64,000 bases of DNA, taken from Alloascoidea hylecoeti. Lineage: Eukaryota. A program made the translations under genes and the position numbers. The stretch covers positions 547,077-611,076 of the forward strand of contig BCKZ01000016.1 of the NCBI GenBank assembly GCA_001600815.1, given 5' to 3'. Shown in pieces: positions 1-46,078 of the stretch. Within the stretch, counting starts at the first letter, position 1, and every line of letters begins with the position of its first letter. The notes under the pieces were generated by a model. It saw only the letters and a list, made by a program, of their open reading frames with translations. It had not been told where the DNA came from and ran no database searches.

Positions 1-1492
1 AAATAGCTTTTGTACGTCGTAACATTATTGCTTTGAGAACAACATGCAGTCTCTGCATTGCAATATCTACCACTTTCTGGTTTCCACTCGTAATAGGAGT
101 TGCAATTTTAGACTTGAACGTGGAAAGGTCGTCAAACGGTGGTATTCTTAAAAATTGAAACAACGACTGTAGTTCCGTAATATTATTTTGAATAGGAGTT
201 CCTGTGAGACACCAACGGCGATCACCTTTAAGATTATATGTGGCAATTGTAGTCTTTGCTGTTCGATTTTTTATAGTATGAGCTTCATCGAGAATAATTC
301 TCCACCACTTAGGACCAAATATAGGATTTTCAGACTTAGGGATCCTACTAGATTTGGTGCTATAGGAATTATATTCAGACATCACGATCTGATATGTAGT
401 AATCACAACATCAAAATCTTTTAACTTTTGGTATGATTTAACCCTTGATGGGCCATGATGAACGGTGACCGTCAATGAAGGAGCTTTCTCATTTATCTCA
501 TCGCGCCATTGAGTAGCCAAAGCTAAAGGAGCAACGACTAAAGTAGTTTTAATTCTTTCAGAAATTCCCTCGCTTATTGAATCTTCACCTGAGCCCTCAT
601 CTAAATCTAGTGATTGTGACTTTAGATCTTTTACTTTGGCAGGATTTTTCAAAATTAATGATATTGATTGAATTGTTTTACCAAGCCCCATATCATCACA
701 GAGAAGACCACCTTTAGCTTCAACCTTTTTTTTTTCTCTTCTCCTGAGAAATTTTACACCCTTTACCTGGTGAGGTAATAATTTGACTTTAAGGCCTGGC
801 ACATATCTATCCTCTTGTTCTTGTTCTTTTTCTTTCTCTTCGTCTTCTTCTTCGTTATTGTTAAGAGCATCTAGTAGAGATTTCAAAGCTTTCGTTGTGT
901 CAATCTTTGTTCGATATGGTGAAGGAAATGCTTCGCCAGAGTCTGTAGATTTCGATTTTGGAGAACCAAAACGGTAACTATCCGAAACATATTGAACATT
1001 TCTTGATTCAGAGGCAAGAATCCGTCGTGCAGTCATAACAGGGCTTTCAATCCGTGTCACCGTTTGTGAGTGATCAGGCATTAATATTGGCTTTTTAGAC
1101 CAGCCAGGGTTCTTCGGCGTCATTGGAGTGAAAAACTCGTTTCTTTGATCATAAGACAAAGTAGATGTTTTATTGGGGGCATGCTTACTGGGGCGACTCA
1201 AGGATGAAAAGTTTTTCTTGGGAATGAAAAGAGGATTTCTTAAGGGAGAAGTCTTCCCAAATGATGCAGAAGTATGTGCTGGAAATTGTTTTGTTTTCTG
1301 AGGATCATTAACTCTTTGAAACAGACTTGATTTGTTTAAAGGTCTGGAAGGTCCAGTGTATTCAACAAAATCAGGAAGTGTTTCTTTCGATTTTCCAGTT
1401 GATTTCGACTGCGGTTTATTGACCGTAATATCTCTAAGCTTGTCAGATACTATCTGAAAATCATCAAAGGATTTATAATCATTTCTATTCAT
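1..1492 (-). CDS. SNF2-family ATP-dependent helicase, Rad5/Rad16/Uls1 type; N-terminal part, runs off the window start
   Basis: Manual minus-strand translation from ATG 1492 (MNRNDYKSFDDF). In frame: GGLLCDDMGLGKTIQ (motif I, ~670-712), LDEAHTIKN (motif II) and RRWCLTGTPIQN (motif III). Absent from the ORF track because there is no stop codon inside the window. Confidence 0.9.
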   Translation of the reverse strand, partial: MNRNDYKSFDDFQIVSDKLRDITVNKPQSKSTGKSKETLPDFVEYTGPSRPLNKSSLFQRVNDPQKTKQFPAHTSASFGKTSPLRNPLFIPKKNFSSLSRPSKHAPNKTSTLSYDQRNEFFTPMTPKNPGWSKKPILMPDHSQTVTRIESPVMTARRILASESRNVQYVSDSYRFGSPKSKSTDSGEAFPSPYRTKIDTTKALKSLLDALNNNEEEDEEKEKEQEQEDRYVPGLKVKLLPHQVKGVKFLRRREKKKVEAKGGLLCDDMGLGKTIQSISLILKNPAKVKDLKSQSLDLDEGSGEDSISEGISERIKTTLVVAPLALATQWRDEINEKAPSLTVTVHHGPSRVKSYQKLKDFDVVITTYQIVMSEYNSYSTKSSRIPKSENPIFGPKWWRIILDEAHTIKNRTAKTTIATYNLKGDRRWCLTGTPIQNNITELQSLFQFLRIPPFDDLSTFKSKIATPITSGNQKVVDIAMQRLHVVLKAIMLRRTKAI

Positions 1493-1534
1493 GATCGTGA
1501 ATATATGGTATAAGCCAAAGAAAGGCAAACAAAC

Positions 1535-1562
1535 AAGTAAGTAAGTAAGTAAGTAAGTAAGT
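1535..1562. repeat. (AAGT)7 microsatellite
   Basis: Seen directly, just upstream of the helicase ATG. Confidence 0.95.
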
Positions 1563-4500
1563 ATAAGTAATTTTGATTACCCTGCTAGATATCTAGAACC
1601 AGGGTACACTTATATAATAAGTAAAAGGTACAGTTTTGTATTATGTCATGCTGAGGTAAGCACACAATATTATCAAACATGCGCCTATTCACCACGGCAT
1701 AACTAATTAAGCTTTGGGTCAATATTATCAACACCGCTGGCAAAAATGTTACAGGAACCGAAAGGAAAACAGCAAGTGATCATCCGTAGTGCGAATTAAA
1801 CAATTTGATTAGACTGGATTTTTCCAATTGCAATATTCAACAAACGCGTCCAACAGCGTGTGAAATTTCTTACACCACCAAAGCTGAATATTAATGGAAC
1901 ACCAAATAATGCGATGATCCTAAAGGCGACCATATGAGCATAACAATATTACATGAATTATATATTCTTAAAGAATCTAATTGTATGTCTTATCCTTAAA
2001 ACGAATTATAGTTAGTATTAATTATTTCTATCTATTTGTTCATCCAGAGAAATCTACTGGCTTGAAAGTTTAGTTTAGACAATTGTCGGATATCATGGCT
2101 TATAAAAACACTTAAAGCTCATTAGCTTTTTCAGGATTATTTTCACTGTATGGATATACATGTAGCGGATTAGTAGCTTATAACCGGAGAATAACTTGTA
2201 ATATCTCCCACAGCAATAGCGATATTAGTGTCTATAGCTATACATATAATAAAATCATAAAGAACTGTTATTAGAATTGAATACCAAGGATAGACTACTA
2301 TAGACTATATATTTATAGAATAATGCATACATCTGTGTAGAACAAATTGTCTGAAAGGGAGCCAAACATAATTAGATATCAAACCGCCAATTTGTAAATA
2401 GATACATATAAACTTTACTTGTATTAAAGGGTTCAGCAAAGTATGTTTTAGATGAGCTTTAAAATTCTTAATTCGGAGACTCTTGCTGTTGAAAATGTGA
2501 TCCGTCGACTAAGATTAAAAAAATTATGATAAATGTGGTCAGGAATCCAATTCAATATATCATCTTCACGCTTGGAAAGTTATGAAGTGAATCTGAAACT
2601 TGCCAAAAAAAGGTGAATAAGGTATCATTTCATAAAATTTTCTACGAACTGTTTACAATGTTTCCGCGGCCATTTCCAGCCATCGCAACGCAGGATGTGA
2701 GTTTATTACTTTCTTCGGCGAAACCCTGAAACAATAAGTGTGTTAATTAACATTTTTCATCTATGAGATGCCTTTTGATCGTCTCAATTATAATGGTATA
2801 ACCTTCCGAAGATTTTAGAACGAGATCGATTAAATGTGTGAAGAAAAAAAACCCAACAAGGCAACGAAAGAGATGGTTTAATGATAGGAGCATCAAGTTA
2901 GAGTGAAATAATGAGAAAACCCACAGAAAATTGTGTACTTGGTACATGTACATTGACTACAATAGTTTACAACGTTTCTGCGATGAGTCGTTCTGTGGGG
3001 TTTCTGCTGGAAGTTAAAGGAGATATATATAGAAGCTGCTTTCAATCTTTGTAAACTATGGTATATTCTCAGGGCACTTACCATAGCAAGGAAGTTGAGA
3101 AATTTCTTAACGTGTACCTGGTATACCTTTCATGGTACCTCTATATTACAATAATTTGATATTTCTATGTTGGGGGTCCATATATCCTTTTTCAATGTAG
3201 TCTCGTCTCAGTTTTATACCACCCCAGTGAAAATAGAATTCTCAAAATTTCACAGGTCAGAAAAGCTGGTTCATTCGAAAATAGTATTAGATATAGGCAA
3301 AAATATGCTGGTATATAGAAAATTATGAGTGAATCTGCGATGTTCTTCTTTTTTCTCCCCTCCTAATGGAAAACAGAAACAACTTGTCCCTAATAAACAA
3401 TTGCAAGATTTTGGTACCATTATATTTGGAAAAATTTAGATAGAACTATGAAAAGTGGTTTGAAGTAGTTAAGTCTTATCACTCAGTAAGAAATTTCCAA
3501 AATGATTTCGAACTTTACCAATAGCCTATTATTTATAGATAATACAACACCAAAATCCTGGAATTTCGTTGAAAAACTTAATATATGCATCAATGAGTGA
3601 TATTCTACTATTTCTTTACCTGATAGAAGTACTGAATAAACTGAATAGATGGAGACCTATCCAACAACCGAAAGAAAGAAAGTCTACTCCAATAATGGCA
3701 TAAATAAAAAGCGAAAATCATTGCTATCTAGGTATGATAGGGTAGCTGGCTCTAAATACGATATTTATGCCTTTTGCTTTTGTTTTATCATCCCTAAGTT
3801 TGCTCTGCTATATAAAATTTTAACTGTAAGGTGGGCACTTTGAAATGGAGGCCAATTCTTCTGATAAAGTCCAGAGCCACGTTGTAAATCGCAATTCTTA
3901 TCCTGTTCGACTTAATGTATAATTAAAGAAGATAGCTGTATCTTACACAAACATAGTATACGTATATCTTATGTCAGAAGTTGTGTTTAAATCAATTTAA
4001 TAAAACTATACATGTGTGATTTTAAAGTCCCTATGCAGATAAAGCTTAAGCGATAAGTGACTATACCATTCTAACAACCTTTTAGTATAAATATAAAACA
4101 GAAGCAACGATACCGCTAAGGATATAGGTTTATAATTTTAATTACATATATTATACAAGTTTAATTACAAGAAAATAAAGGAATGGAATGGGAGCTTAAG
4201 GGATCTGCAGCTGATGTCGCACAGAAAAAATGTAGTCCTTGCAATTTCAATTATTATAAATAATCTAATTCAATAATATATATTTTTTAGGATCATACAA
4301 TTTGGTACACAACTATTTGAATTCAATAAGAAACTATATAATAATTAAATCTAATGTTTTATAATATTTCATGACCTTTCAAACTATACACGTAAATTCC
4401 GATTTTTTTATACGTGATAATTATAAGACTTAGGAATGTAATATGGTATTGGTAATATACACCATATTAATTTTAAAATAATCTCTTTTAAACTCAAAGT

Positions 4501-4638
4501 CCAGCAAGAAGAAAAGCGAATCATGAATTCTTATAATTAACTGTATCATTTATGCAGGGACAATTAGTACTGGTACACACACATAATAAGTTTTTGGTAA
4601 TAATCGTTAATTAAAATTATAAGTTATAGGTATACCAT

Positions 4639-4685
4639 AATAACAATAACAATAACAATAACAATAACAATAACAATAACAATAA
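4639..4685. repeat. (AATAAC)7+ microsatellite
   Basis: Seen directly. Confidence 0.95.
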
Positions 4686-5642
4686 TATTAATAATATTGA
4701 TTTTATGATATTAATAATAAAAATATATAACAATAATAAAAATCTATAACGGGTCAAATAAAATCATAGGAGCTAACTTGATGGGGTGATAATTATATTG
4801 TATCTATTTGTTTCATTAAATATCACATTCATTTTTAATTTGATCCTGATATTTTCTTGGCCAATATTAATGTAAATGAATATAATCTCAACAGCAATTA
4901 TACAACCCGTATATGGCTTTATATAAACTTTATACGGTGTAGCTATAGAATATACAAATATAATACCGTTGTAAAGTTTTGTAGATGTATTTACTGGACA
5001 TCATTTGCAACAACACCTTAAGTAACAACTCTATTGGAGCCGTAGCTGATTACTCAAAACAACTATATCGCGATAACTTTAGGCATCTCTATTCGTTTTC
5101 AGATGTATTTAAATTTATGGCCAAAAAATTTCATTAATATTGGTAATACAAATTAGTTATACTGAACAATAGCGGGTGGGGGTAAAAATTACAATTATAA
5201 GAAATTTTTTATATAAATTATATAATAGATAACTACAATATACCTGCTACATAATACTTTAAAAAATTAATCAACTTCCTCAAATTTACTCTATAATAAC
5301 GAGTCTCTACTAATATGATCTATTTAATTTCTAATTAAGTTGTGGCATTGCTGAGAAGAATGATTTAAAGTACATATATATTTATGATACAATTATAAGC
5401 TCATAAAACAATCAATATCACTTTAGAATTATATATAAATTATTTAGTCATATTCCTATATCAATGAGCATGATTTGCGGACTAATTATCAATTACATGA
5501 AAAAGTTCATGAATATATATAATATGATATATGGTATATATAATCCGGCCGCAATTGTGTAATATTATAATTGTGCTCGCTTGATAAAAAGCGAAAAAAC
5601 CTGATCATGATTATGAGTTTAAATTGATATTCTTATATATGC

Positions 5643-5735
5643 TGTTAAAGTTCAAAGTGCCTGTTCTACCAGTTGCGCCAAAAAGCCAATCGACTCTTTA
5701 GTGAACTGTTCTAAGAGTGTAATATATATCCAACA
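5643..5735 (-). repeat. 3' LTR of the TRIM
   Basis: 93-bp copy preceded on the minus strand by the PPT (5736-5747). Confidence 0.95.
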
Positions 5736-5905
5736 CACCCCCCAACCTTAGGCAGGTCACTTTACTAATCGCCATATCTGCTCACCCCCGTGATCTTGCG
5801 GGTTTCGGACTTCTTGCAGACTGACTCGGACATTTTACTTTCGGGCCATTTATGCGTTACCCTACTAAGCCTCAACTAGACTGATGTAAACTACCGTCCT
5901 ACGGC

Positions 5906-6031
5906 GGACTCGAACCTGATGCCTCTCGTGGCGGCGCCGCTACCATGTTAAAGTTCAAAGTGCCTGTTCTCCCAGTTGCGCCAAAAAGCCAATCGACTCT
6001 TTAGTGAACTGTTCTAAGGGTGTAATATATA
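5906..6031 (-). promoter_or_regulatory. Putative RNA polymerase III type-2 promoter within the TRIM (TATA + A box + B box)
   Basis: Minus strand: TATATATT 6031-6024, A box TGGCGCAACTGG 5983-5972, consensus B box GGTTCGAGTCC 5916-5906. The A-B gap is 55 nt. Confidence 0.75.
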
Positions 6032-6038
6032 TCCAACA
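5946..6038 (-). repeat. 5' LTR of the TRIM
   Basis: 93-bp copy beginning TGTTGGATATATATT on the minus strand, followed by the PBS at 5945-5938. Confidence 0.95.
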
Positions 6039-9000
6039 TATGCTACTATGATTATTCAAAGCCAATTGAAAGTAGTTACTCTATACGGAATCGAAGTTTA
6101 CAGTTACAACCCACATATTTGCCTATATAATATATCTATATAAATGTAGGGCGATATAATTCTGCTGCACTGGCTCTTAATTTAAAAAATATATCTTTTC
6201 AATTTGAAGGATAAATCTATAAATCTATAAACTTATATATCTAATATTTTAATATAATTATAAGTTTATCAATCGATTATACGGTATGTGTATTTACACT
6301 ATTTATTAAGTGTGTGGCCATGGGGTCGAGTTAGTAATTTTAATCATTCAATATTAATTAACATATAACATACTGGTAATCCATAAATACATGTATGTGT
6401 AACTACCTATAATTACATGTAACTTATATTTAAATATAGTTACAGCTACCGTTATATACAATTATAACTTCAATACGTCAGTAATTGACAGCTGCAGAAT
6501 ATCAAATACTATTCAGTGGAGTAAATATGATGTCCCATATTACTTAATTAATCGGAGATACAAATAAGGTTGCATTGGTTATATTCTTTAGATGTACCCA
6601 TAAAAATAATCAGTGAATACCTGAGGCGCGTTCATAAACGTTCAGGTACATACATTTTGCTACAACAGTTATATAAAAAATTATCCCCTTAACTTATAAT
6701 TTAATTAAGGTACCAAATTTCAATTTAAAGGAATATCATACACCTTTTCAAATGCATTTGATCATAGATCTTGATGTATTAAATGTCTGCATTCCACCGG
6801 AAGAAGTCCGACTCGAACTCCGGACGCCCCTATGCCCTCAGCATTGCAACGATGCCCCTACCAACAAGTCAGAAGTTCATCCGAGTTGTTAATATTTATC
6901 ACCAACTTGGACTAACATCTCATTCTAGCATATATAGCATTATACATTGTATACAATAGTTCAGTTGTTATGTACATCTTTGTTTCACTTAGAACGCCAT
7001 TTTAATATCAACCTCGAAATCTTGATAAACTTTATTTGAGAATATCATCGAAACCTCATTAAATTTAACCATTAGATATATAAGTGACTCGGCTTGATTA
7101 CAGATCCAAAGCAATATCTTGTCTACTTGGTCGGAGCAGGTTGTACCTAGCTATGTATAGTACTGCGTTTGGCTTCATTACAAAACCAATGTGATGACCT
7201 ACTGTATGTATCAATTAAATTTTAAAAAATCTGGGGAAGGAACAGTAACTCAACAGTGCTAGCACGAAAGGGTATCAAAGCATATGAAGCTGTATTACTT
7301 ACTCCTAAGCTTTTCTTATCTTCGAATTCTATTTATAAATATATAGAATAAAAAATAAAGACATGGCAGATCACTGTCGATAATTATACTAATGGTCCCA
7401 CACTATGACATTAATTATACATAACGACTGCAGTGAATTTAACGCCTGATACGTAACTGAGATGTCATCGGAATTGGTCAAGAATTTCTATTATTGGGTT
7501 TTGAGGAGACTCAATACCAATTTCAAGTTATTTTAAAGAAAATATATTGGAAAAGAAGAATGTCATGTTATCGTGCATGTTATGAAAGAGGTGTTATCAA
7601 AATCAATACCGGATTATTATTTTTACCTGTTTTGGGACAAGTTCACTTCGGATAAACCTTGTGATGAGGTGGAAAAAATTTAAAGCTACATTTACCGTTC
7701 TGATTTTCAAAACTTTGTTTCTAGTACCTGAATCAATTCAAATCTTAATTTTCATTTATTAATGTATAAATGTATAAGGATTAAATTTAAATGCTTTTTT
7801 TATTTCAAATACCTGTACTCATTCAAGAATCTCATTTAATCATAATTTTAAGCTTCCATTTCGTGTTGCTGTACGTATAATGTATTATATTATAATTCTT
7901 GGAATAATACTAGCGATTAATTAAGTGAAATTCCGCGCCATGGTCTGTGGAATTGTTTCTGCTTAGTTTTAAATTTTTCAGTGTGTGTCTCATACCTTTG
8001 AGAAGTATTTTTATGAAAAAGGAAATATATATCTGTTTATGAAAATTTTCACAGTTGGAAGGCTAAGGAAAATTCGTTTTAAGGAACAGAATATATATAT
8101 GTGGCATATGTTTCGGAGGATCCATATCTGTTTAACTCATCAACTTTAAATATCGATGTACATTTGATGCTCGGTTTACAGATTAGTAAAATACAAATAC
8201 GCATCCGTATTCAAGCAGATCTATATATGTAAAATTAGGTTATTCTTATATTTTTCTATTGAGTTATTTGGAATAGAAATAATTTTCCATTTAACTTCAA
8301 TATTATCTGACTATTTTTATAATTTGTGACATTCAGAAGCAAAATAACTGGATGTTTAAAGTAACATTTTAATCTATATTTAGCTCGATAAGACCCATAA
8401 TTGGAACGGCTTCCAAATGTACAGTGAATAGTAGATATCTCAACATTTTATTTATCTAATTTTACATTTTCATATATATTTTTATTTCTAAATTGTTTCA
8501 ATCGGCTTGTGATTACTAGTTTCAATTGATATATGCATTTCCTTTTCTCATATAATCGCAATTGCGAAAACTGTTTTTTTATAAAGACGATCTAAACTCG
8601 ATTCATATTTATTTATAAGAATGTTAACTCAATACGGCTTTGAGCCATTTATTGCTGCCTATCACCTTTAGATACGGGCAATTTTTAACACGTGCACAAA
8701 ACTTTTTATTCATCAAGCTTGAACAAAATTATATATATTATTCGTTGCAGGAAATTAATTAATCCAAACTTATTATGCTGGTGTCAACAAGGCTGACTTA
8801 GCTAATATAATTATGATCTAAATAATGGTATAATTAATAATAATATACTCAAATGAACCTGTATAGAAAATTTCCTAGACAGGTACCTGGTGTCTTATGT
8901 GCATATCTAATATTACCCTAGCTGGTAATGCATGGATAGTATATAGCCAATTGTAAGTGATAATATATATTATAACGTTGTAATTATCTATGATCAAAAA

Positions 9001-11391
9001 ATTCAGAACCGAATGACTATCAGGTGTCCTATACGGTATACAATTAAGGTGTTGTATATTACAATGTTATAGTTTCCTCCATACCCTTACAAGTTACGTA
9101 AATCTTTATTCAGTTTAGTCTTGCTATTGCGATTGTCATTCTAGGATTTATCTAGGATTATAGTTACTAAGCCATATATGCATATCAGATAAAGTGGGTC
9201 AATTGAACTTTTCAATGGATGCATATTATGGATCAATGTGTGTCCCATTAATATTTAGATCTGAGTATGAGGTCATTAATAACATATATCGATATTGATG
9301 GAGCTCGAGGAGACAATTGAAAATAGTTTTTTTATAAAAAGAATTCGAACAATTTATATGATTTGTAGTCTTAAAATAGTATAAATAATTTTATATATTA
9401 ATAACCTTAAGCTATAGATACATGTATATATAAGATCTTATAGGAGTTTTATTAGGATTCAGGAACCCTATCACTGAGACTTCGGCGGCCGTGAAATTAT
9501 GTTATCTAAAAATATACATGCAAAATTTGAGAGCAAGTACGTCTAGATCTGTATCTATCAAAATTTTTACATCTCTCAAAGCGACATTTAGGCGGCATAG
9601 TATAGTGCATAGTTATTCAAGGGCCAACATGCAAGGAGACAAACAACTGCAACTGCAGCACATAGTAGTATGTGCATGCCACTACATGATCATGATGAAC
9701 CTAAAGATACATTCATGACCATAATAAATTATCACGTTAACACTTAGGCCTGGCCTTTCAGTGTTGTTATTTTCAATATTATCCACTTTATCCGAACCGG
9801 ACAAATAGACCGGAATACAATTGATTAACAATATGCTTACTATCTAGAAGTCAATATAAGCTCAAATTAGTAATTAACTGCTAATATTAATATTAATAAA
9901 AATATAACTATTGTAGTTCTAGCTGTATACTTAAACAGTTTTTTAATTTAGTGAGATATATAGATATCCTATATACGAGTCATACGGTAAGATACGGAAT
10001 TCCAATTGCAATATTAATAATATCTATAGCTTGAGTAATAGCTAGCCATAGCTAGTCAAGGGACTCAAGGCTTAAGCTTGCATTCGATGTTTAATTTATA
10101 ATTGACTGCTTCTTGACACAGAAGTGACACAATTCAAAAATTACAATTGCAAGCTTTTACGATATCTCGATTCTCGAGCGCTAATATATATATACTAAAA
10201 GCGGCTATACTTTAAAAGTAATAGCAGAATCTAAGTTTAGTAAACGGATATGATTGTACATATATAGCTACATATTTCAGGAGTTTAGTTAAAGAATATG
10301 TCAAAAATCCATAAAACTTAAACTGGAGCTGAGGGCCAATGAGCTTTCTAAAACGTTCCTTGCCGACATTCTCAGTCGCATGACATGGAAAAGAAACACA
10401 GGGGCAATGATGGTGGGTGAATATTATTGGAAATCCGTAAGCGAATAGAGGGTGTTAGCGAAAAAGAAAGCCACAGTTAGGATAACGCATATGGATGGTT
10501 TACGCACAAGGTAGGAGCAAAGAAAAAAAAACAGAATATAATTGTCTTCATTTGGATGGTGAAAGTGCCTGTAAGATTCTCTGGTATGGAATAATTTTGA
10601 CAAGCCTGAGGGCATTTTCGAGACACAAAACCAGTTAGAAAATTGAAGGATATCGATACACTCGTACGACGAAGTGAAGCTTCAGGTATGCTATATGCAA
10701 GAGCAAAAAGTGTAGGTGCAACAGGCCGGATCCGGGCAGAGAGTTCAGCCGGTCAATCCAATCAACGTACCGGCATGGCAGGGGCGGGAGGAAAATAGAC
10801 GGACGCATGGGACGACGGGGATGGAAAAGGGAGTGCCTTGCAGGCGCAACATGTGCATACTGCAGAGTGTATGCGGCCGATATGCAACCTGCAGGTGGAT
10901 CTGATTGTGAGAAGCAAGATCCGGTCAGCCTTACATATGCGGTACTGCAGAGAAAGAACTCTGACTGTGGGAGGTTTGGGACAGCGACGACACGAGGGTT
11001 GGGACTCCACCCGACCGTGGGGGTACAGGAGACACGGGGGACCTAATTGGATCGTCAGCCTGCAGCAGCCCAGCAGCCTAGTGGCCCTCGGCCCGGGATC
11101 CAAGAGGCCGCAGACCTTGCACGACCCTTGGAGTAGGTGGATCTGTCATTTTTGCTGTCCTCCGCAGAAGTATCAGTTATCCTTGCAACCACTCTCGAAC
11201 CGATCGCCTTTCGTCCCGCAGAAGTTATTATATACCAGCTCAACACCCTGAACCGTCTGAACGACATTTATATACTTCGCAAAAACTTCCCTCTTTCCAT
11301 CACATCTTTCAGAAAAACAGCCCCTTACCACTCCTGACATAGAATAAGCTTTCTCTTCCAACCTCCTCTGGTATAAAAGCGACTACTGTCA

Positions 11392-13587
11392 ATGTCAAAC
11401 AGCTCCTTTCCGTCTCTTGCTGCTGAAAATACACTCTCGTCTGATATGTCTCTCTGGGGCCCGGCCAGTTCAACCACCACCACCGTTAACCCTTCAAAAG
11501 ATTCTACCACAATCCCTCTAATGGGCTCAGATTTAGGAAGCTTTATTGGAAACTCACAACACAACCACGACCTATCGGCTCGCTCTTTCATGTCCTCCCC
11601 CTCTTCCATCTCTTCAACCTCTCGTCCACCTCTCACTAGACCCCCAGTAACGGCCAGTGTGACAATCGGTGACCTCTATTCCGCTAACAGCGGGCCCAAA
11701 CACTATTCGTCAGGTTTCCCTTCAAATGTAATCGACAGCAGCATTAATCTCGCGGCTGCCTATCATACCGGCCTTTCGGATCATCTAAATCACTCCACCC
11801 AACCAGACGGCTCCCTGAAGTATTCTTCACTAAGTGCAGACCTTCAGCACTCAAGCGCTCAATTCTCTCATGATATTACCAACCCGTTGGTTGAACATCA
11901 TCATTATCCACCAGGAACACATCATGAGAAACCACATCAAAAGAGAAAACGTGCCAATTCCGATCAATTGAGAATCTTACAGCAAGAATTTGAGAAAAAT
12001 CAAAATCCGCCTACTTCAGTGCGGAAACAAATCAGTGAGGCGATAGGTATGCCAGAACGCTCTATTCAAATTTGGTTTCAAAATCAGAGAGCAAAAACTA
12101 AGAAAAAGAAGATATTAAAGTTGAGCAACATGAACGGTAATGGAGATCTCTCCAATTCAATGACTTCGTCTGCTTATGGACGCAAAAATAGTCAAAGTAG
12201 TGCGGGTTATGACGATGATCTCGAATTCGGTCATTTAAAAAGAGTGTCAAGTCTCCAAAACAGTTCTTCTCAAGCCTTCAGTGATTTGGGTTATCAAGAT
12301 CCTTTTTCTTACCCTCTTTCTCGCTCTCCGTCAGCAAATATAGCCCCTCCTTTTTCTAGGAATAGAAACTCTATTTCGAGCATAAAGCCACTGAGATCTT
12401 CTAGATCTAATAGTAGGATTAGTCCCATCACAAATTCTAATGTCTATTCAGCACTTCCTCTAGGTGATCCAATTCAGCTTTACCAACAAAATTATTATCC
12501 AGCAAGTATCCCCATGCGTCCAAGTATATCCGATAATGCTTCTTCCATGAATTCGGAGAGAGCATATGGTGGGTATAACTCTCAAATTTTGACTACGTCT
12601 CCGTTTTCATTGGAAATGCAACTAGAGTTGAAAAATAATCACCCGAAACAACTCGAATCTCCTTTACTATCAACCGGGTCTGTGCAAGCATCACACGGAT
12701 TTACCCGTTCTCCTTCTATAACTTCATACCCTTCTTCAGCTACCTCAAACTCCTTTAATGGAATTCTACCGGCTCCAAATCTCCAATCTTTAAGGAGACC
12801 CCAATTTTCATCATACTTGGATAATCTTGCTTCTTATTCTTCAGCACAGAAGTCAAATCAAATTAATTTGCCAGGCTATAATGGTAGCGTTGAGTCAATG
12901 CAAACAATGAAATCGAGCAATTTAATTCCGGTCGGAATAAATAGCCTATGTATAGGTTCATGGAGGCGTATCCGATCACCAGAAACTAAAGTTCTTACCA
13001 CTGTTTCTTCAAATGTCCTTGAAGATCCCACTGAAATTTTAAAGTTGATGACCACCAATAACCTGGTTATGCTAGTTTCTCTATATGACTCTACAATCGT
13101 TTATCTTTTCAAAGTTGAAGACAGTAATAATTCGAACAAATCCCCAAATATTAGTGATGTGTCTAACAAAATTATCAATGATGAAACTAGTTCAAGTTAC
13201 ACAGATCAAATGATATTTAAAATTTCGTATCTATTTGATCATGTTAGTTCAGTTAATGTCAAGTCTTCGATTCCAACGGACGGCTTAATGACCGGAGAAG
13301 AAACAATAGCTGATCTCAATATCACTTTAAATCAACCTCCTTCTTTTCATATTCACTACCCGGCTTCATCACAACACGATGAAGAAAATTTGGGCCTGGT
13401 TGGAGGGAATCAATTCTGGAGCCACGCAGATGATTTCTCAGAAGGAAGACAAGCTTCTGCTGCGTTTGAGCAAATTAATGGAGGATCTGGTGCTAGTCAT
13501 GTTATTTCAGGCACGAACTTATCAAACTTACAGTTAATATCTTCTGAGATTACGAACTATAGGCTGAAACAACGATCCCAGGCTTAG
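11392..13587 (+). CDS. Homeodomain transcription factor, Hoy1/Pah1/Phx1 type
   Basis: 731-aa ORF with homeodomain QKRKRANSDQLRILQQEF...RSIQIWFQNQRAK. C-terminal SLCIGSWRRI and DFSEGRQAS motifs resemble the Pah1/Hoy1 group. Confidence 0.85.
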   Translation: MSNSSFPSLAAENTLSSDMSLWGPASSTTTTVNPSKDSTTIPLMGSDLGSFIGNSQHNHDLSARSFMSSPSSISSTSRPPLTRPPVTASVTIGDLYSANSGPKHYSSGFPSNVIDSSINLAAAYHTGLSDHLNHSTQPDGSLKYSSLSADLQHSSAQFSHDITNPLVEHHHYPPGTHHEKPHQKRKRANSDQLRILQQEFEKNQNPPTSVRKQISEAIGMPERSIQIWFQNQRAKTKKKKILKLSNMNGNGDLSNSMTSSAYGRKNSQSSAGYDDDLEFGHLKRVSSLQNSSSQAFSDLGYQDPFSYPLSRSPSANIAPPFSRNRNSISSIKPLRSSRSNSRISPITNSNVYSALPLGDPIQLYQQNYYPASIPMRPSISDNASSMNSERAYGGYNSQILTTSPFSLEMQLELKNNHPKQLESPLLSTGSVQASHGFTRSPSITSYPSSATSNSFNGILPAPNLQSLRRPQFSSYLDNLASYSSAQKSNQINLPGYNGSVESMQTMKSSNLIPVGINSLCIGSWRRIRSPETKVLTTVSSNVLEDPTEILKLMTTNNLVMLVSLYDSTIVYLFKVEDSNNSNKSPNISDVSNKIINDETSSSYTDQMIFKISYLFDHVSSVNVKSSIPTDGLMTGEETIADLNITLNQPPSFHIHYPASSQHDEENLGLVGGNQFWSHADDFSEGRQASAAFEQINGGSGASHVISGTNLSNLQLISSEITNYRLKQRSQA

Positions 13588-37002: not shown

Positions 37003-39724
37003 ATGTCCGACAGTCCTCAAAGACCAACTAAAAAGTCTCGGAACAGAACAGCCATCTCTTGTACGATATGCCGCAAACGAAAAGTCAAGGTATGCTACAA
37101 ATGTTAATAAATTAGTGAAATCTATAATAATTATAAATATAATATATTTACTAATATGATATCATCGACTTTAGTGTGACCGTGGGAGACCGTCATGCTC
37201 AGCATGTGCCAAAGCTGGAATCACCTCGCTGTGTCGGTACGAAGAGCCGGTGTGGATCAAACTTCACCAGCAAGAAGAGAAGAAGACTACTGAAGTAGAA
37301 AGTGCTCTTCTGGAAGAAGTAAAGTTCCTGAAGGAAAGAATAAAAAGACTTGAGAAATCTTCCAGTTCAGTCCCCTCACCTGCTATCCCAATGACACCAG
37401 TAGCTACACATTTGCATTTGCCTAGCCCTACACCTTTTGTGGTTCCACCATCGTCGGTGCCGGTATCGGTTGCCTCTCAACAGTTCTCTTTACCTCCTAT
37501 CAGACCCTTCTTGAATGAATCACTGAATGTAAAAGGTTCTCAAACTACAAATAATCACAACTTAGATCTTTATGGACTTTATAGAAATCAACAACCTCTA
37601 GATGTAATAGCAAGTAATGAAAGGATGAATAGAGCCGAATTTAATCCTGAAATTTCTATTGCAAAAGAATTCTCAAGGCTTATTAGAAGAGGAAATAACT
37701 ACCGTACAAAATATTGTGATCCGCTGAGTTATATGGGCACAATTACAAACGATAAAGTGTTAGATGCTGCTTTCGTGAGGCTTATTCACAAGTTTCAATT
37801 CGTACAAAAAGGAAAACTCCAAGAACGCTTTAGATCACATCTTGAACGAGAATTTGAAAGAAAACACGTTAAATTATCCTTTGTTTTGAATGTACAGAAC
37901 AGGGATGAAACTGATCTAGTAAAGCAAGTTGAAAAACTTCTGCCATCGAGAAAAATCATAGATTTATACTTGGAACGTTATGCCGATTGTCTCTATTACA
38001 ATTATCCTATAATTGATATGGTATTATTCAAAGAAAAATTGGATATTATCTTGGGTACAGAAGATCAGGTTAAAATTGAAATCCCTTCAAATAATGTTAA
38101 TCTTGATTTATGTGCAATTCTGGCGAACCTTCTTATTATAATGCGTATATCATATATGACTATCCCTCCTAAAGATGATATTTCTTCATCTTCATCTAAA
38201 CAAGCAGTGTCAGAAGCAGATGACCCAGATACTCTTGATTCCCTTCGTGAACAAGCTATAGGTTCTACCTATGTTGAACTAGCAAGAGAATGTCTTTCAA
38301 ATTATAAGTTTAGGAGAACATCACTGGATGTTATTCAAAGTTTAACATTCCTAAGGATATATGTTATGCTTGCACCAGAAGATGGAGATGGTTGTGACGG
38401 ATCTGATAGTCAGACATTAATGGGTGTAATCACAAGAATGGCAGTTGGATATGGACTTCACCGGGATCCTGATAATTTCCAATATATTAAATCTGAAAGG
38501 ATAAAACATATTAGAAGAAAACTTTGGCATCAAATAATCTTTTTTGATGCTCTCCAAGCAATAAGACTTGGTAGTTTACTGTGCTTTGAAACCGAAGATT
38601 ATTGTGATACTTGCTTGCCGAAATTGTCCCCACCTTATGTAAATGATAACTCGGAAATTTTTGTTTTGAAATCCTATAATATGAGATATGAATACTATGA
38701 AATTCTTCGGGAGACTGCCCGTGTTTTACTTAGAATGAAGAATCCCCCTACAAAAACTGACATTGAAGCTCAATTGGGAAAATTGAAAAGATTTCATGAT
38801 TGCTACATTCACTTTCATGGTGCCCTTTATGATTTCAAAGAGAATGATTCAACATGTACACTTGGCCGTAAAGCCGGAGAGTTAATTTCTTCATTGACAA
38901 TTAAAACATTGATTGCCTCTGTTCATTATTTGGTATTTTTAAACAGTGAAAAGAACTTAAAGGATTATGATATTAAACATTTTCAGGATGCTCTAACTTT
39001 ATCCTTAGAGATTTCAGAAATTGTCAACACCAATTTAAAGAATGAGAATGGTTATATTCCTCATTTTATTGAATTTTTGATAATTCCTACATTATTAATA
39101 TCGGCACATCGTGTCCTATTGTTTTTTGCCACACTAATTATGAGATATCTTACCAAGACTGGCCCTTTTGTACCACTACAAAGAGAAGGGTGTATTGGAA
39201 ATGGTTCCTTTTTGGAGCTTGATATTAATGAATATAATTTGATTTGTGAACATTATAGAGAATTGGTTGGAACGATCAAAACTATATCATCTAAATATGT
39301 CCATGCTTGGAAATTGATTGTATCATTTGAGTCTATGATAACTGAAATTAATGATAACGCTAAGGATGCTGGAATGCCTCCAATCATGACATTACCTTCT
39401 ACCCATTGGACTCTGACCGAACCTAACAATGCTCAGTGTTGTAAAAAACTCAATAAAATTGCAGATTTTACATCAGATAAAAATGAAAATGATAATGATG
39501 TTCACCAATTAAGTCCAGAACCAATAACAGGAAATGCAATCAGTGATTCTTCATATGTATCAGTTCATAATCATGATGAATTGTATCCTTTTAATTTTGG
39601 AAATAATGGGGGTTCCTTATGGTTAGATCCATTTAATTATGATGTTAATATCTATGATGATTCGAAGGAATTTGGGCTCGACGAAGGAATCGGGACTTTT
39701 ATTTCCCAACAACAAAGTTGGTAG
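37003..39724 (+). CDS. Zn2Cys6 transcription factor, Mrr1/Hap1-like (copy A), intron 37090-37174
   Basis: Exon 1 MSDSPQ...SCTICRKRKVK, intron GTATGC...TACTAAT...TAG, exon 2 CDRGRPSCSACAKAGITSLCRY in frame with the 824-aa ORF. Middle homology region LAPEDGDGCDGSDSQ...GLHRDP. Confidence 0.9.
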
Positions 39725-40810
39725 TTTATTTAAATTTGTTACAATATAAGAAAATATATATGGTTGATGTATTAAAGAGATTGACACTTTAGAACTTTGA
39801 TTTTATTTACTCGTACTATAATATAACAATAATTTATTGTAGAAAAGGATAACATTATATGGGGTAAATGCCGAAATTGGTTTATGAATGGTTAAATCGA
39901 TGAAATGAGTTTGTCTTAAACAACCAGATACATTTTGTAACTGATAGAAATGACGGATAAATTATTTAGAACTTACAAAAGACGTTTATCGGATTGCATA
40001 TAGGATATCCTCATCATATGCGATAAAAATTCAAAACGTATGAATATATTTTGTTTATTTTGTACACCAATACTTGCATTTAACATTATACCGCGCGTAA
40101 ATGGCTCTCCAATGTGGCGAATTCAGAGTGGAAAAACTATATAAAAATGATAAATGGTGCTATTAAGCATATTTCATAATCAACAACATCTATTCCAAAT
40201 GCATAATCGATAATATCAGTTTGGAGCATCTCTGAACACCATACGTAATATCATGATTCATGACTATCTTTCGCAAGCAATCTCCCGAATGAATACCTTT
40301 ATTCTAAAGATTTTCAAAAACGTCTTTTCAGAGTACTAGTTGCCACATAGGGTCGACACAAGACTTACATTTTCACCCAATCTATTTCAAACCAAATTCA
40401 AAGGCATTTTTTGTCCATCTTCTAATCATGCGGTAATGAATTTAAATATCTCATTATACCATGATTATAGGCGAGTTAATGTATAGTATTATTAATTGTA
40501 TCAACTTGCAATTGGCTATCATAGAATTTTTCATCTATCATGATCATTATTACTTGTTTGTAAAATATCGATATTATAGATCACAGTACATGATTAGGCA
40601 ACATAACATCATCAATGGAATTCATAACTTATCGAATATTACCCGGTTTAACCTTAATTAGACCATAAAAGACCACAAAAAGTTTCTGCGGAAACATCGG
40701 TTGACCATATTTATGTAAGTTAGTAAGATTTATAATTAATACGCTCAAGTTTATTTTTGATAATTTCTAAAAATTTAAAACCAACCTGTCCACAATTGCA
40801 AAATTAAAGG

Positions 40811-43252
40811 ATGGCAAAAACTCATGTTCTTCCTAAATCCTGTTCCATCTGCAGGAGGAGACGAGTCAAGGTACGTTATGTATACGAAATATAATTATAA
40901 TTAGTAGTAAATCATATTAATCATCCTATTTAGTGTGATAGAAAATGTCCGTCTTGTACCAACTGTTTAAGACTAGGCTTTTCACACGTTTGTAAATATT
41001 ACGAACAAGAGAGAGAGGAAGATAGGCTTAAGGCGGAGAATATAGAATTTACCAAAAAGATAGAACAACTAGAGTTGATATTAGAAGAACAAAAAAAATA
41101 CAAGATAAAACAAGAACAAAATGCATCAGAAGCAAATGATCCTGCTTTGATGATTTCAAATTTTCAGACACTACAAGTGGGAGATGGAACAGCTGTTCAT
41201 TATGGAGCAACTTGCAGCTACACATTTTTAACTAAAGATCCAGTTCTTATTGAAGTTTACAACGCATTTATGAAAGCCAAGTTCAATATTGAAAGAACCC
41301 GTGGAGTTGAAATTACTCCAGTGAAACCTTCAATGTTTTATACGTTAGGGTACTCTTCGAAAGCAGGACAAGATATCCGGAAAGAAATTCTTAATAAAGT
41401 CGAAACTATGTTGCCTGATAAGCCCATGTGTGATTTAATAATGAAAAATTTCTTGAGCATTTCCTCTGGGATGTGGCCTTTTCTTGATATCTCATATATC
41501 ACTTCAGATTTTAGAAATATCACTGATATTACTCCAGATAATAGATACAAATTTAGACTTGATGACGATTCATCATGTATAATATTCTGTATATTCTTGG
41601 TGGTTTTAAGATTGGGATATGTGACGCTTCCATTCTTTTATGGAGAAGGGAGCAAAATTCTTTCAAATCCCCAATATTCAATTTATAAACCATTGATGGA
41701 TAATAATGTGAAATTAAGTCCGGAAATCGTTCAAGTAGCTGAAATGATGTTTTCATCCGTTTCAAATAATCAAGCAGATTCTGCATCTTTTCAATTCTTA
41801 TTGTGTTTAATAATATATCGAATTGGATTCTCGGGTGATCATTATAGAATGTCCAACTCCTATAATAGCAGAATGCTACTAGCAAGAATCATACAAACTG
41901 CAATTATTATGGGATACCATAGAGATCCAGATATTATTATGCCAAATGCGCCTGCTGAAATTAAGAACATGAGAAGAATCTACTGGACCTTTTTGATTTT
42001 CATGGATAGTCAACAATCATTTTTATATGGGAAGCCATTGATTGTAAATAAGCGTATGACCGATACAAAAAAACCGGTAATGTACCCTGAATATCAGCAA
42101 TCTCAATCAAAAGCTAAATGGATTGAATATTATCAGCTTCTACATGAAATGACACCATGCTTTCAAGATGGAACTGAATTAATTTTGGGACTAAAGAATC
42201 GACTACATAATTCAGATTTAGAAAACCTCTCAGATAGAATATTGAAATTAATCAATTCCCAGCTTACTCCTGCGGCCGAGATTGTCAATCGATTAACAAA
42301 TGGTGATTATTCTCTGAAATCAAGTGATATTAGACAGCTTTTATGTCGAACAGTATTAACTTCACAATATCATGCTTGTTATTATATCATGTATATGAAT
42401 TGTAGTGAAGATGAAAGAGAACTTCAACATCATTATTTGAAGCGCGGATTATGCGCTGCTGTGGTGAACCTTAGGCTTTCGGCAATTATTCTACAAACTT
42501 GTCAACAAACCTATTCATATGCTATGCTTCCTTATTTATGTTCTATACTTTTATTGAACATGAATAGAGCTTTGTTATTCATTATATCTATTTTCATAAG
42601 GTCACAAAAGGAGGAGTATAGGTTTTCTATACATCCCATGAAACCATTATATCAACCAATTGATATTGTGGATCTTGGACTTGATACTGAAGTGGAACCA
42701 TATGAAAAGTCACTATTATATTATCCAAAGTTGCTTTATGAACTATTACATACGTTTTATGGAAAGAATACCATAACATTCGCATATTCAACAGTCATTT
42801 GGGTTCTTATTGGTGTCGCTGAAAGAGGAATACATCAAAAGGACTTAGAATGGGAATTAGGCCCACTAATTAACGGTCTTATGAATCAAAGTTTGGGAGA
42901 TGAGAAGCGGGAAATTAACAAGCAGTATCCAGAGGTGATAGAAACTCAAAGACATTCGTATACCAATCCTACTATCAATACTAATAATAATTTTATAAAA
43001 ACCGAGAATAATAATAATAATAATTATAAGGAATTTACCTATGCTTCGAATAATCCATATACGCATGCTCCAATCGTTGATTCACTACCTACAGACTCTC
43101 AGTATTGGGAAGGATTATACTACGATGATGAATATGTTGACATGATTGATTACAACTCAACGAGACCTCTCGTTTCTGATCTCTTTGCTCAACCAGATGT
43201 TTTGGGCTCTTTCTTGTACCAAGGAGATGATGGGCCTCCCCAGCATTTATAG
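40811..43252 (+). CDS. Zn2Cys6 transcription factor, Mrr1/Hap1-like (copy B), intron 40871-40933
   Basis: Exon 1 MAKTHVLPKSCSICRRRRVK, intron GTACGT...TATTAAT...TAG, exon 2 CDRKCPSCTNCLRLGFSHVCKY in frame with the 725-aa ORF. Contains the GYHRDP motif. Confidence 0.9.
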
Positions 43253-43459
43253 ACATTATATATTTTAGGGTAGTTGTATTATATTTTGCATTTTTTGATA
43301 ATTAATACTTTTTAGTATGTATCTGCAGCAATCAAAAAAGGCGATTTCCAGTTGCCACTTACCATTACCCTACCTTTTTCTCTGAAATAAGACATATACA
43401 CTTAAATAACAGTTCGCTCGATTATATCAGAAGCCTGTACTTCTTCTCTCTACTTTACC

Positions 43460-46078
43460 ATGGTCAACAAACCCAAAGCCCGCAAAAGAACTCCCGTGTC
43501 TTGTCACGTTTGCCGTAAGAGAAAGGTCAAATGCGATAAAGGAAAGCCTACTTGCTCCAATTGTGAAAGGCTTGGGGTTAGTAATCTTTGCAAGTATGAT
43601 GAACCCACTTGGGCTGTTGGGCCTTCACCAGAAGACCAGCTTAAAGAGGAAAATGTTAAACTACGAGATAGACTACAACAGCTGGAGACAGAGCTAAAAT
43701 CGGAACTCACTTCAGATCCCTCCACATCTTCTGTGTCTGCTTCTATGACTGCTTCTGTATCCTCTGGAAGTGCGAGATCTTTGACCGGCACCGAACCTCA
43801 ATCCACACCCACATACAATGATGATAAAAATGATCCGGTAATCGACTTGACTACAAAATTCCAGGCTCTGAATGTCAAGAAAGAGTTCACAACTCATTTT
43901 GGTGCAACAAGTAGGCTTTCATTAATTCTTAATGATCCAGTTCTAACACAAGTTTACCAAGTGCTGGCGGATGTTAAGAGTACTTCAAACACTAAAAGCC
44001 TTAACTCTCAAAGGAATGAGGGTTATATTGCAAGAGGAACTGATGTATATAAGCCTCGCGGCGTTGCTGACTTATTTATTGTAAGAAATGCTACAAATCT
44101 TATTGCTAGAGTTGAATCATCAATCCCCACAAAGTACATATGCGATATTTTATTTGATCACTTCTGGGGTTACGTACACACTATTTGGCCTGTGGTGGAT
44201 AAAAACACTTTCTTGAGTGATTTCGATCAAATCATAACAATGGACAACAGCGGCCGGTATAGACTTAATATGAAAGGCAAAATGACCTCTTACGTTACCC
44301 TTGCCATATTTCTAATTATTTTACGTCTTTCTTATGTCACATTACCATATATTGGCTATAATGCACAGGAGGTAGTATCTGAGCCAAGATATCGAATGTA
44401 TCAACCATTGGTTGAGATGAATATTCAGATTGGCCCAGAATTTGTTGATCTTTCAAAGGAATCGCTTTCAAATACAAGGGTTTTGCGAAAGGGGACTTTT
44501 CCGACACTACAATATCTAATATATCTAAGAATATATCATCTGTTAGCCCCTGAGGATGAAGATGGAGTTGATGTAGAGGATAGTACTATTCTTCTTGGTT
44601 GTATATCACAAATGGCTATAACGTTAGGATGTCACAGGGATCCAGATATGTTTCCACAAATCAAAAACGAGCGTTTCAAATTTATATGGCGATCATTGTG
44701 GCATATGATTTTAGTTGGTGATGCATTTCAATCTACAAATTTGGGTAGACCACTGGTTGTGAATAGTATTTTTTATGACACAAAACCGCCATGTTTGTTC
44801 CCAGGTGTTGAGAATAATCCTGTGTATGTGTCCGAGGTTGAATACTTTAAACTGCATTATGAAATTACACTACTGATCCGGGAAGGAGCTGAGCTTTTGA
44901 TGAATCTCAAAGTACTTCCAAGACGTTCAAAACTTGAAAATCATGCACGTAAAATGGTTCAATTTACGATTGACAATTCTCTTAAGTTTGAGGATTTGCT
45001 AGTTTATACTCCTCCTGATCAAAAAACCCTTAGATCTAGAAGAATCCGTTTCATGCAAATGAAATTATTTCTTCTCAACCAAATTTATTTTACCTATTAC
45101 ATATTATACCTCAATTGTGGACCTGATGAACTTGAGTTGAGTCACAGTTACTTGAGACATGCTACAAGTGCAGCGTTGATTATATTTAGTGGGTCAATTG
45201 GTTTCTTGGAGAAGGGGGAAGAATACTTTGGGAACGAAACTGTATCGTTGATTGTCCCTATGGTGTTGAGGATAACACAGAGAGCATCACAGCTTGTAAT
45301 TTCCATCCTAATACGGAGTAGATCTGAAAAATACCGAGCAACAGTTCCTAATCTAGATTTTCTATATAAAAGATCATATTTCATGGATCAATTACCAGTT
45401 TCAGATGAAGCTATAAAAGCTGCTGAAACCCCGTTGATGTATTATGTTAGGCAATTCTATGATGCTTCCAAAATTTTTTCTCAAACATTTTCTCATTCAT
45501 GGAAGATGACTCATGTTCTATGGATATTGATTGGTATTGTTGAAAAGGGGTTGGAAAAGGAGAAACTTAGGCGTTCGTCAGAAACTTCAATACAAGTATA
45601 TCAACCTCAACAAATGCAACAACAGAGTCAGAGCTCTATAATGCCCCAACCATTCTTTTCTAGCTCGAGTCAATTATCGCAAGCTGTTCCTTCAACCTCC
45701 CGTTCTATTTATTTGTCTGATGTAAGCAATATTCAAATGGACTGGAGGCAACAACAACAAAGTCTAATACCACAACAATCTTACCAATCACAACTACAAC
45801 CAAGCTCTTCTATGATCCCAATAATGGGGACAGACAACCCACAGTCTATTGTATCAAATGAACAGCAGCAATTGGATTTCAATACATTTTTTGGGGATGA
45901 TTCGGCCTTTTGGGGGGATATACAAACTGAGCTTCAACTTTCGACGCTTTTATCACCGTCTGGCACGGGGACTGTTACAGATTTACTTAATGAACCATCA
46001 ATGAATAGTGCTCAATTGTTTCCAGATCAGACCGATTTGAGGTTTTTTGGTGATAAACTAAATAGTAACACGTTCTAA
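43460..46078 (+). CDS. Zn2Cys6 transcription factor, Mrr1/Hap1-like (copy C), intronless
   Basis: SCHVCRKRKVKCDKGKPTCSNCERLGVSNLCKY and LAPEDEDGVDVEDS...GCHRDP. Confidence 0.92.
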   Translation: MVNKPKARKRTPVSCHVCRKRKVKCDKGKPTCSNCERLGVSNLCKYDEPTWAVGPSPEDQLKEENVKLRDRLQQLETELKSELTSDPSTSSVSASMTASVSSGSARSLTGTEPQSTPTYNDDKNDPVIDLTTKFQALNVKKEFTTHFGATSRLSLILNDPVLTQVYQVLADVKSTSNTKSLNSQRNEGYIARGTDVYKPRGVADLFIVRNATNLIARVESSIPTKYICDILFDHFWGYVHTIWPVVDKNTFLSDFDQIITMDNSGRYRLNMKGKMTSYVTLAIFLIILRLSYVTLPYIGYNAQEVVSEPRYRMYQPLVEMNIQIGPEFVDLSKESLSNTRVLRKGTFPTLQYLIYLRIYHLLAPEDEDGVDVEDSTILLGCISQMAITLGCHRDPDMFPQIKNERFKFIWRSLWHMILVGDAFQSTNLGRPLVVNSIFYDTKPPCLFPGVENNPVYVSEVEYFKLHYEITLLIREGAELLMNLKVLPRRSKLENHARKMVQFTIDNSLKFEDLLVYTPPDQKTLRSRRIRFMQMKLFLLNQIYFTYYILYLNCGPDELELSHSYLRHATSAALIIFSGSIGFLEKGEEYFGNETVSLIVPMVLRITQRASQLVISILIRSRSEKYRATVPNLDFLYKRSYFMDQLPVSDEAIKAAETPLMYYVRQFYDASKIFSQTFSHSWKMTHVLWILIGIVEKGLEKEKLRRSSETSIQVYQPQQMQQQSQSSIMPQPFFSSSSQLSQAVPSTSRSIYLSDVSNIQMDWRQQQQSLIPQQSYQSQLQPSSSMIPIMGTDNPQSIVSNEQQQLDFNTFFGDDSAFWGDIQTELQLSTLLSPSGTGTVTDLLNEPSMNSAQLFPDQTDLRFFGDKLNSNTF

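Follow-up and report, generated by a model that had tools for sequence, protein, structure and literature searches.

A 396-bp element on the minus strand of the 64,000-nucleotide stretch of Alloascoidea hylecoeti DNA analysed here (the window) almost certainly belongs to a real family of miniature LTR retrotransposons (TRIM). Judging from its sequence motifs, its genomic RNA is probably made by RNA polymerase III (Pol III) from a promoter split between the LTR and the interior. A fuller account is offered more tentatively, and taken whole it stands a little short of even: only an intact 5′ LTR with its leader would fire, the family would be parentless and ride in the particles of several distant copia families, and the insertion of a Ty3-type element would mark the start of transcription in vivo.

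The preliminary description of this DNA had reported 93-bp LTRs with two differences, an exact TATGC target site duplication (TSD), a 210-bp non-coding interior and a G-rich plus-strand primer tract (PPT) adjoining the 3′ LTR, and all of these were found (Table 1). The LTRs are direct repeats with TG..CA tips, 98% identical over 93 nt each, with 2 substitutions and no gaps. The primer binding site (PBS) abuts the 5′ LTR as described and its complement is found at the 3′ end of the initiator tRNA (tRNA-iMet) of the host itself, for which three genes were found by a pattern search of its genome; its length is 12 nt, not the 8 nt quoted earlier. The PPT is G-rich but not purely purine. No ATG-started ORF of at least 60 aa overlaps the element, gag-pol is absent between the LTRs, as would be present in an autonomous Ty1/copia element, and beyond the PBS the interior matched none of the autonomous-element interiors examined. 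With a size below 1 kb, every structural test therefore gave the TRIM architecture that had been proposed. The predicted fold of the whole TRIM RNA was not unusual (z -1.13).

Table 1. Features of the TRIM and its flanks, in the sense direction of the element (positions in the window)
Feature	Position	Strand	Basis or remark
TSD, 5′ side, 5 bp TATGC	6039..6043	.	sequence
5′ LTR, 93 bp, TG..CA	5946..6038	-	repeat comparison
TATA-like run, LTR 8-15, about 29 nt before predicted start	6024..6031	-	sequence; putative role
Predicted Pol III start region, LTR 36-40	5999..6003	-	site duplicated by Ty3-type LTR insertion in L172/L164
Self-complementary 24-nt stretch over predicted R, G-U pairs included	5981..6004	-	11 of 20,000 shuffles reach it; no covariation support
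T5 run in 5′ LTR, possible premature Pol III stop	5983..5987	-	
tRNA-type A box, LTR 56-67, 15.7 bits	5972..5983	-	weight matrix
PBS, 12 nt against 3′ end of host tRNA-iMet, abuts LTR	5934..5945	-	
Two 7-nt stretches (5927-5933, 5915-5921) complementary to tRNA-iMet nt 6-12 and 39-45, like Ty1 Box 0/1	5915..5933	-	by likeness to boxes given in PMC5454406
tRNA-type B box in interior, 18.4 bits, starts 67 nt after A box	5906..5916	-	weight matrix
Non-coding interior, 210 bp	5736..5945	-	
G-rich PPT with some T's, abuts 3′ LTR	5736..5747	-	unlike purine tracts of copia families B and D
3′ LTR, 93 bp	5643..5735	-	A box present, no B box behind
T5 run in 3′ LTR, predicted site of Pol III termination and of the RNA 3′ end	5680..5684	-	sequence; putative role
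TSD, 3′ side, 5 bp TATGC	5638..5642	.	sequence

The family was searched for in the assembly of its own genome (24.8 Mb in 136 contigs, a draft with gaps). A search with the whole element gave at least 46 matches (40 of 173 candidates scored), and exact genome-wide searches with two 20-mers of the LTR gave 154 and 155 matches, while the reversed controls gave none. There are about 155 LTR copies of the family in this genome. All seven assembled two-LTR copies (322-396 bp) are flanked by exact and mutually different 5-bp TSDs, and three of them have fully identical LTR pairs. Solo-type LTRs were found with an exact TSD (51 of 66), with one mismatch (7) or with none (8). The dispersed copies and solo LTRs by which mobility was to be checked are therefore present, and they show that the family was dispersed by an integrase making 5-bp TSDs. 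These TSDs are AT-rich. A tRNA gene lies within about 1 kb at only 2 of 60 TRIM loci, and because of this, targeting to tRNA genes as by Ty1 was rejected for the TRIM.

In total, 139 distinct LTR matches, the 66 solo-type ones among them, were examined, at loci drawn from exact-match lists and hence biased to young copies. At LTR position 20, 103 of 106 near-full copies carry the alternative base, so the variant looks private to the copy at 5643-6038; at position 68 the variant of this copy was found in 1 of 106. Since both LTR differences look private, this copy is not among the youngest. Older LTR variants with 77-88% identity (L036, L042, L204, L240 and L160) kept the T5 run in four of five cases and a recognisable, often damaged, A box in all five, and therefore the family predates its young burst. 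The insertion at 5643-6038 is also present in X2 (a wood-decay metagenome, study P2) and in X4 (study P3), a second run of the same organism which may be of the same strain as the assembly; X5 and X6 lack flank coverage. The empty site that had been suggested as a check was not found, as the contigs covering the flanks in X2 and X4 both enter LTRs and none connects one flank straight to the other. In metagenome contigs, a set from which records like the own genome may be left out, an exact LTR pattern had no match, and no look-alike window was found in the other genomes compared.

To assess the promoter motifs, weight matrices for both boxes were built from 18 A/B pairs of host tRNA genes. The A box starting at LTR position 56 scores at the top of the host tRNA range (11.2-15.7 bits), and the B box at element position 123 lies near the top of its own (9.6-18.9 bits). 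In 2000 dinucleotide shuffles their summed score of 34.1 was never reached, and the 56 PBS sites that lack a TRIM interior scored 14.0 at most. The element thus carries Pol III promoter motifs of the kind that define the TRIMp3 class. The distance of 67 nt between the boxes is inside the host tRNA range (42-85), and the LTR alone contains no B box (best score -2.0 bits). The B box is intact in 14 of 16 distinct interior contexts, among them a variant that has lost part of a tRNA-complementary 7-mer, and damaged in the other two, one of which is a TSD-flanked full copy. Outside the boxes, likeness to tRNA is at chance level: the best alignment to 26 host tRNA sequences scored 33, against a null 95th percentile of 35, so that the evidence for a tRNA origin of the LTR was not significant. 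Neither an ARAGORN tRNA call nor an Rfam match was obtained on the element (window 1-12000, E up to 5).

These motifs could also be read in another way. The TRIM may be an ordinary Pol II element, transcribed from the TATA-like run at LTR 8-15 or by read-through from neighbouring sequence, its B-box 11-mer being a box for pairing with the primer tRNA (the T loop is nearly palindromic) and its A box a relic or a chance match. The 7-nt tRNA-complementary stretches do abut the B box, as Box 0/1 are placed in Ty1 (PMC5454406), and purifying selection on the A box was looked for among 106 copies with no signal: variation was not reduced, with 8 distinct alleles over 12 positions, compared with 10 over 17 in U5 and 12 over 17 in U3. 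The early T5 is also awkward for Pol III. However, the B box is identical to the one on the sense strand in 4 of 18 host tRNA types and needs two bulges to pair with the primer, and a top-scoring A box accompanies it at a distance like that in tRNA genes. We consider a Pol II origin of the RNA unlikely, though it deserves to be weighed, and prefer transcription by Pol III from the two boxes.

The predicted Pol III start was placed near LTR positions 37-39 because initiation is assumed to lie about 10 nt before the mature tRNA end, as given for Pol III in PMC5911963. The sense strand of the TRIM has just two runs of at least four T, namely the T5 at positions 52-56 of each LTR. Downstream of host tRNA genes, the first T run is most often a T5 (22 of 54); within the leader or gene, a T5 occurs in only 1 of 54. 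In yeast, Pol III often reads through weak T5 signals. The T5 of the 5′ LTR should nevertheless stop some or most Pol III transcripts. For the palindrome over the predicted R, 9 alleles keep and 12 break the pairing, which leaves selection unsupported. An attempt to bound the RNA start by 5′-truncation points was dropped, as fold-backs made after the first strand transfer also contain U3.

The early T5 is central to a further alternative, in which the boxes recruit TFIIIC and TFIIIB but Pol III stops at the first T5, the bound complex serves to insulate or to clear nucleosomes, and the full RNA comes from Pol II. The T5 of the 5′ LTR is 16-20 nt downstream of the predicted start and has the length commonest among host tRNA terminators, which favours this reading. 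On the other hand, the RNA of an LTR retrotransposon must begin and end inside the LTR, and a transcript from about position 37 to the T5 would have a short R like that of Cassandra, for which 18 nt is given (PMC10886601); in addition, the interior is free of T runs of four or more. We regard such a role as decidedly unlikely, and a full-length Pol III transcript remains the preferred reading.

An indirect sign of factor loading came from an insertion in the LTR itself. In L172 and L164, a solo TRIM LTR with its own TSD holds an LTR of family G (about 346 bp) at LTR positions 36-40. The two represent one insertion event, both places being within a 3561-bp identical duplication. This identical stretch (G000:C51:40-3600 and G000:C34:112464-116024) reflects either assembly redundancy or a very recent duplication, and part of C51 is found again in contigs C111 and C113. 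Family G is Ty3-type; its interior gave a weak Ty3 capsid match (E 0.0046) and a sister element a strong one (3.8e-25). Searching with the family-G LTR gave 30 matches, two for the event in the TRIM and 28 in 24 other loci. At 22 of these 24 loci a tRNA A box begins 18-21 nt after the LTR tip, the gap being 20 nt in 12 cases, and no tRNA was seen in the stretches taken for the remaining two. The 22 comprise 21 loci from a scan with tip patterns that were tuned after inspecting sequences, and one at 19 nt that was read separately. In L172 the tip is 20 nt before the TRIM A box, and random placement at such a position would be expected about 6 times in 10,000. The TSD of this insertion matches at 4 of 5 positions. 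No second Ty3-type insertion in a TRIM LTR was found in the loci examined, which are among the LTR 20-mer matches listed (about 55 of each list lie outside).

Ty3 is reported to insert within 1-4 nt of Pol III starts, to need TFIIIB and intact A and B boxes, and to avoid sites bound by TFIIIC only (PMC5911963). By analogy, the family-G insertion suggests, as an indirect sign from one event, that TFIIIB was loaded in vivo at the TRIM A box, and this single footprint is the best evidence that the TRIM boxes may work. A Ty3-type insertion exactly at tRNA-gene spacing also argues against the Pol II reading. It shows factor loading only, which would suit the insulator reading as well, since Ty3 still targets promoters with reduced transcription (PMC5911963). 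The host LTR in L172 is now solo and is not followed by a B box, as would be expected if the two LTRs recombined once the insertion had taken place; the alternative is TFIIIB loading directed by the TATA-like run. Separately, the insert at L249:527-635 is short and palindromic and has a family-G-like 5′ tip at either end, and therefore fold-back products also occur in Ty3-type elements.

The preliminary description had inferred mobilisation by an autonomous copia-type element. A census of PBS sites was made by exact genome search, and the 76 sites were classed by the preceding LTR and the following interior. At 14 of them a TRIM LTR precedes a TRIM interior. Copia families B, C, D, E, H and I each have an LTR of their own, with a U5 ATG in frame across the PBS into gag-like frames, while the TRIM LTR has a stop codon in frame where copia LTRs supply the gag ATG. 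The gag assignment rests on Pfam copia gag for C, D and, weakly, E, on similarity to those for B, and on short frames only for H and I. The Gag proteins of B, C, D and E are 21-35% identical. Two other families, F (10 PBS sites) and G (6), are Ty3-type.

The census revealed nine LTR/interior hybrids and two head-to-head joins between the TRIM and copia families. For the most part, TRIM and copia DNA meet at the PBS that both have. The TRIM interior was found behind a foreign LTR at six sites (B 3, C 2, D 1), the TRIM LTR before a foreign interior at three (C 2, E 1), and head-to-head PBS joins once with B and once with D. None was found among the 16 PBS sites of the Ty3-type families F and G. 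Outside the census, hybrids with C, D and H were seen. The commonest hybrid runs from an inverted partner U5 tip through partner U5, PBS and TRIM interior to a TRIM LTR. Exact TSDs flank 10 of 13 hybrids checked (L105, L106, L108, L110, L015, L032, L040, L182, L039 and L030) and are lacking in L107, L109 and L031; L133, L221 and L160 are outside this count. Four copia families take part in the TSD-flanked hybrids. Hybrids between copia families also occur in the census, and therefore mixing is general in this genome and no single helper is singled out.

As many of the hybrids are palindromic, two contain assembly gaps or unresolved bases, and N runs stand mid-structure in L007, L030 and L215, the hybrids and fold-backs could be artefacts of short-read scaffolding. 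In our judgement this is very improbable, because 10 of 13 have exact 5-bp TSDs on both sides, the joints fall exactly at the PBS and every end is an LTR tip. We therefore treat the hybrids as real. Those with B, C, D, E and H imply contact with copia elements during reverse transcription, in keeping with the copia-type mobilisation proposed earlier. The search for a compatible autonomous element, suggested earlier as a check, gave none: no full-length copia element with the same LTR tips and PPT, and no autonomous element with the TRIM LTR, was found in the assembly, a draft from which autonomous elements may be missing, and the PPT and tips differ from those of B, C and D.

The TRIM could instead have arisen by internal deletion from a single dedicated copia parent that shares its LTR and is missing from, or collapsed in, the assembly, with the hybrids being incidental. 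The TRIM LTR does precede the gag-pol of C at two places and that of E and D at one each, and the assembly is a draft with gaps in which many reverse transcriptase fragments lie at contig ends. However, each such interior also occurs with its native LTR, whose ATG is in frame across the PBS at the point where the TRIM LTR has a stop. The places with a TRIM LTR and gag are accordingly hybrids, because that gag natively belongs to the LTR supplying its start codon; for the same reason the gag-pol behind the TRIM LTR in L030, once considered as the parent, was rejected after the census. The lack of any interior match beyond the PBS, and a PPT and LTR tips unlike those of B, C and D, also weigh against a dedicated parent, which we hold to be quite improbable. 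A TRIM with an LTR of its own, whose RNA would enter copia particles, is preferred.

Several further structures were seen among these loci. At L170 (G000:C47:40.4-42.3 kb), L018, L200 and L007, TRIM DNA is joined in fold-back form to poly(A) or to about 0.5 kb of foreign sequence, which looks like template switching onto cellular RNA. Family B LTRs (L106, L032) start with TA and end with AA rather than TG..CA, and B-ended hybrids still have exact 5-bp TSDs. Family F (L157, L159, L168, L174 and L175) is of the Ty3/gypsy type; its pol frames are long and open, its LTR-PBS junction lacks the CA end, and its 10 PBS sites are clustered on few, mostly small contigs. The family E interior lies behind foreign sequence or a foreign LTR at L180 (G000:C35:36468), L162 and L151, in hybrids without TRIM. 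A nest at L238:3014-3405 consists of an inverted family D LTR in a TRIM solo LTR, apparently within a family H LTR, with a 5-bp TSD for each. At L079, tRNA-Ala and tRNA-Phe genes are separated by about 13 nt with only T4 between them, and are likely a dicistronic pair.

Combining these observations, we propose the following mechanism. TFIIIC would bind the A box in the LTR and the B box in the interior and load TFIIIB over the TATA-like U3. Pol III would start near LTR 37-39, sometimes pass the first T5 and stop at the T5 of the 3′ LTR, giving an RNA of about 320 nt with a terminal repeat R of about 20 nt. Solo and 3′ LTRs, having no B box, would be weak or silent. The RNA would enter particles of copia elements primed by tRNA-iMet, be reverse-transcribed there and be integrated without targeting to tRNA genes. 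Hybrids would be accidents of reverse transcription, arising when DNAs from different families paired at the PBS they share and were then integrated; such annealing of TRIM and copia DNAs may take place outside particles. The partner minus strand would fold back and copy the tRNA end, its PBS overhang would pair with the TRIM minus strand as in second strand transfer, and the fold-back product with two LTR tips would be integrated whole. Within families, it is established that co-packaged RNAs recombine (PMC6894440); nothing specific on fold-back cDNAs across families was found in the literature covered.

The preliminary description had placed the host among budding yeasts, in agreement with the named best matches of the succinyl-CoA ligase alpha encoded in the window, which are almost all from Saccharomycotina, at about 75-81% identity and none close. 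Judged by this protein, the host is a budding-yeast lineage far from the named succinyl-CoA ligase alpha sequences. The TRIM itself lies within window positions 1-10870, 10.8 kb with no ATG ORF of at least 100 aa, which is unusual for a yeast and may represent spliced genes or regulatory DNA. At 6780-6870 (minus strand), 750 bp from the TRIM, there is a GC-rich island that contains a motif resembling a B box and begins somewhat like the PBS; it is single copy in the genome and gave no tRNA or Rfam call. Three adjacent long ORFs are located at 37391-46078, and by their motifs these are candidate fungal zinc-cluster transcription factors.

That TRIMs are not well described in Saccharomycotina, as stated earlier, held for the literature covered, which included the available parts of PMC3248453, PMC13570524, PMC13728883, PMC4316626 and bioRxiv 10.1101/2025.06.16.659975, with most subscription journals, Repbase and Dfam outside this coverage, and in which no report was found. 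If the proposed mechanism is true, the split promoter explains how an element with identical LTRs keeps its 3′ and solo copies quiet, and the Ty3-type insertion is a natural read-out of TFIIIB loading of a kind lacking in sequence surveys. Kojima (PMC10886601) states the dependence of TRIMs on a helper as an open question, and the hybrids suggest that a common primer and PBS may suffice for it. An element of 396 bp with canonical yeast Pol III signals is also directly testable in S. cerevisiae extracts and cells.

Compared with the yeast Ty1/copia elements described in PMC5454406 and PMC6894440, the TRIM shares priming from the tRNA-iMet 3′ end at the LTR edge, additional tRNA-complementary boxes, a palindromic sequence in R (Ty1 PAL, PMC5454406) and a parallel to the recombination of co-packaged RNAs (PMC6894440). 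It differs in being non-coding, in its 93-bp LTR, in the lack of tRNA-gene targeting and in hybrids that span families only 21-35% identical in Gag. SMART/FRetro129 of grasses, as described in PMC3281118, is of a similar size class (292 bp, with 85-bp LTRs) and likewise has a 5-bp TSD, solo LTRs and a copia helper with dissimilar LTRs. The SMART interior matches part of the SMART helper at 96% identity, whereas the TRIM showed no helper similarity beyond the PBS, and the term 'polymerase III' is absent from the SMART paper.

Among elements with Pol III promoters, Cassandra and Ajax, the 5S-derived TRIMp3 (PMC10886601, PMC7215508), are alike in having a Pol III-type internal promoter, a start and a stop in the LTR and a very short R; they differ in that their LTR is derived from 5S, while the TRIM described here gave no 5S Rfam match, has type-2 tRNA boxes and does not contain its promoter within the LTR. 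Helenus, the TRIMp3 described by Kojima in 2024 (PMC10886601), has a tRNA-like sequence with both boxes inside the LTR, an arrangement not found here, where the B box follows the PBS. The 5-bp TSD and copia-type PBS of fungal Helenus were both found in the TRIM. Table 1 of that paper gives fungal Helenus only from Basidiomycota, one file of its supplement had no match for yeast terms, and Helenus promoter function is described there from sequence, without validation. What appears to be new relative to known TRIMs with Pol III promoters is the splitting of the boxes across the LTR/PBS boundary, in a budding yeast. By its motifs, the TRIM would work like a TRIMp3 but is no Helenus.
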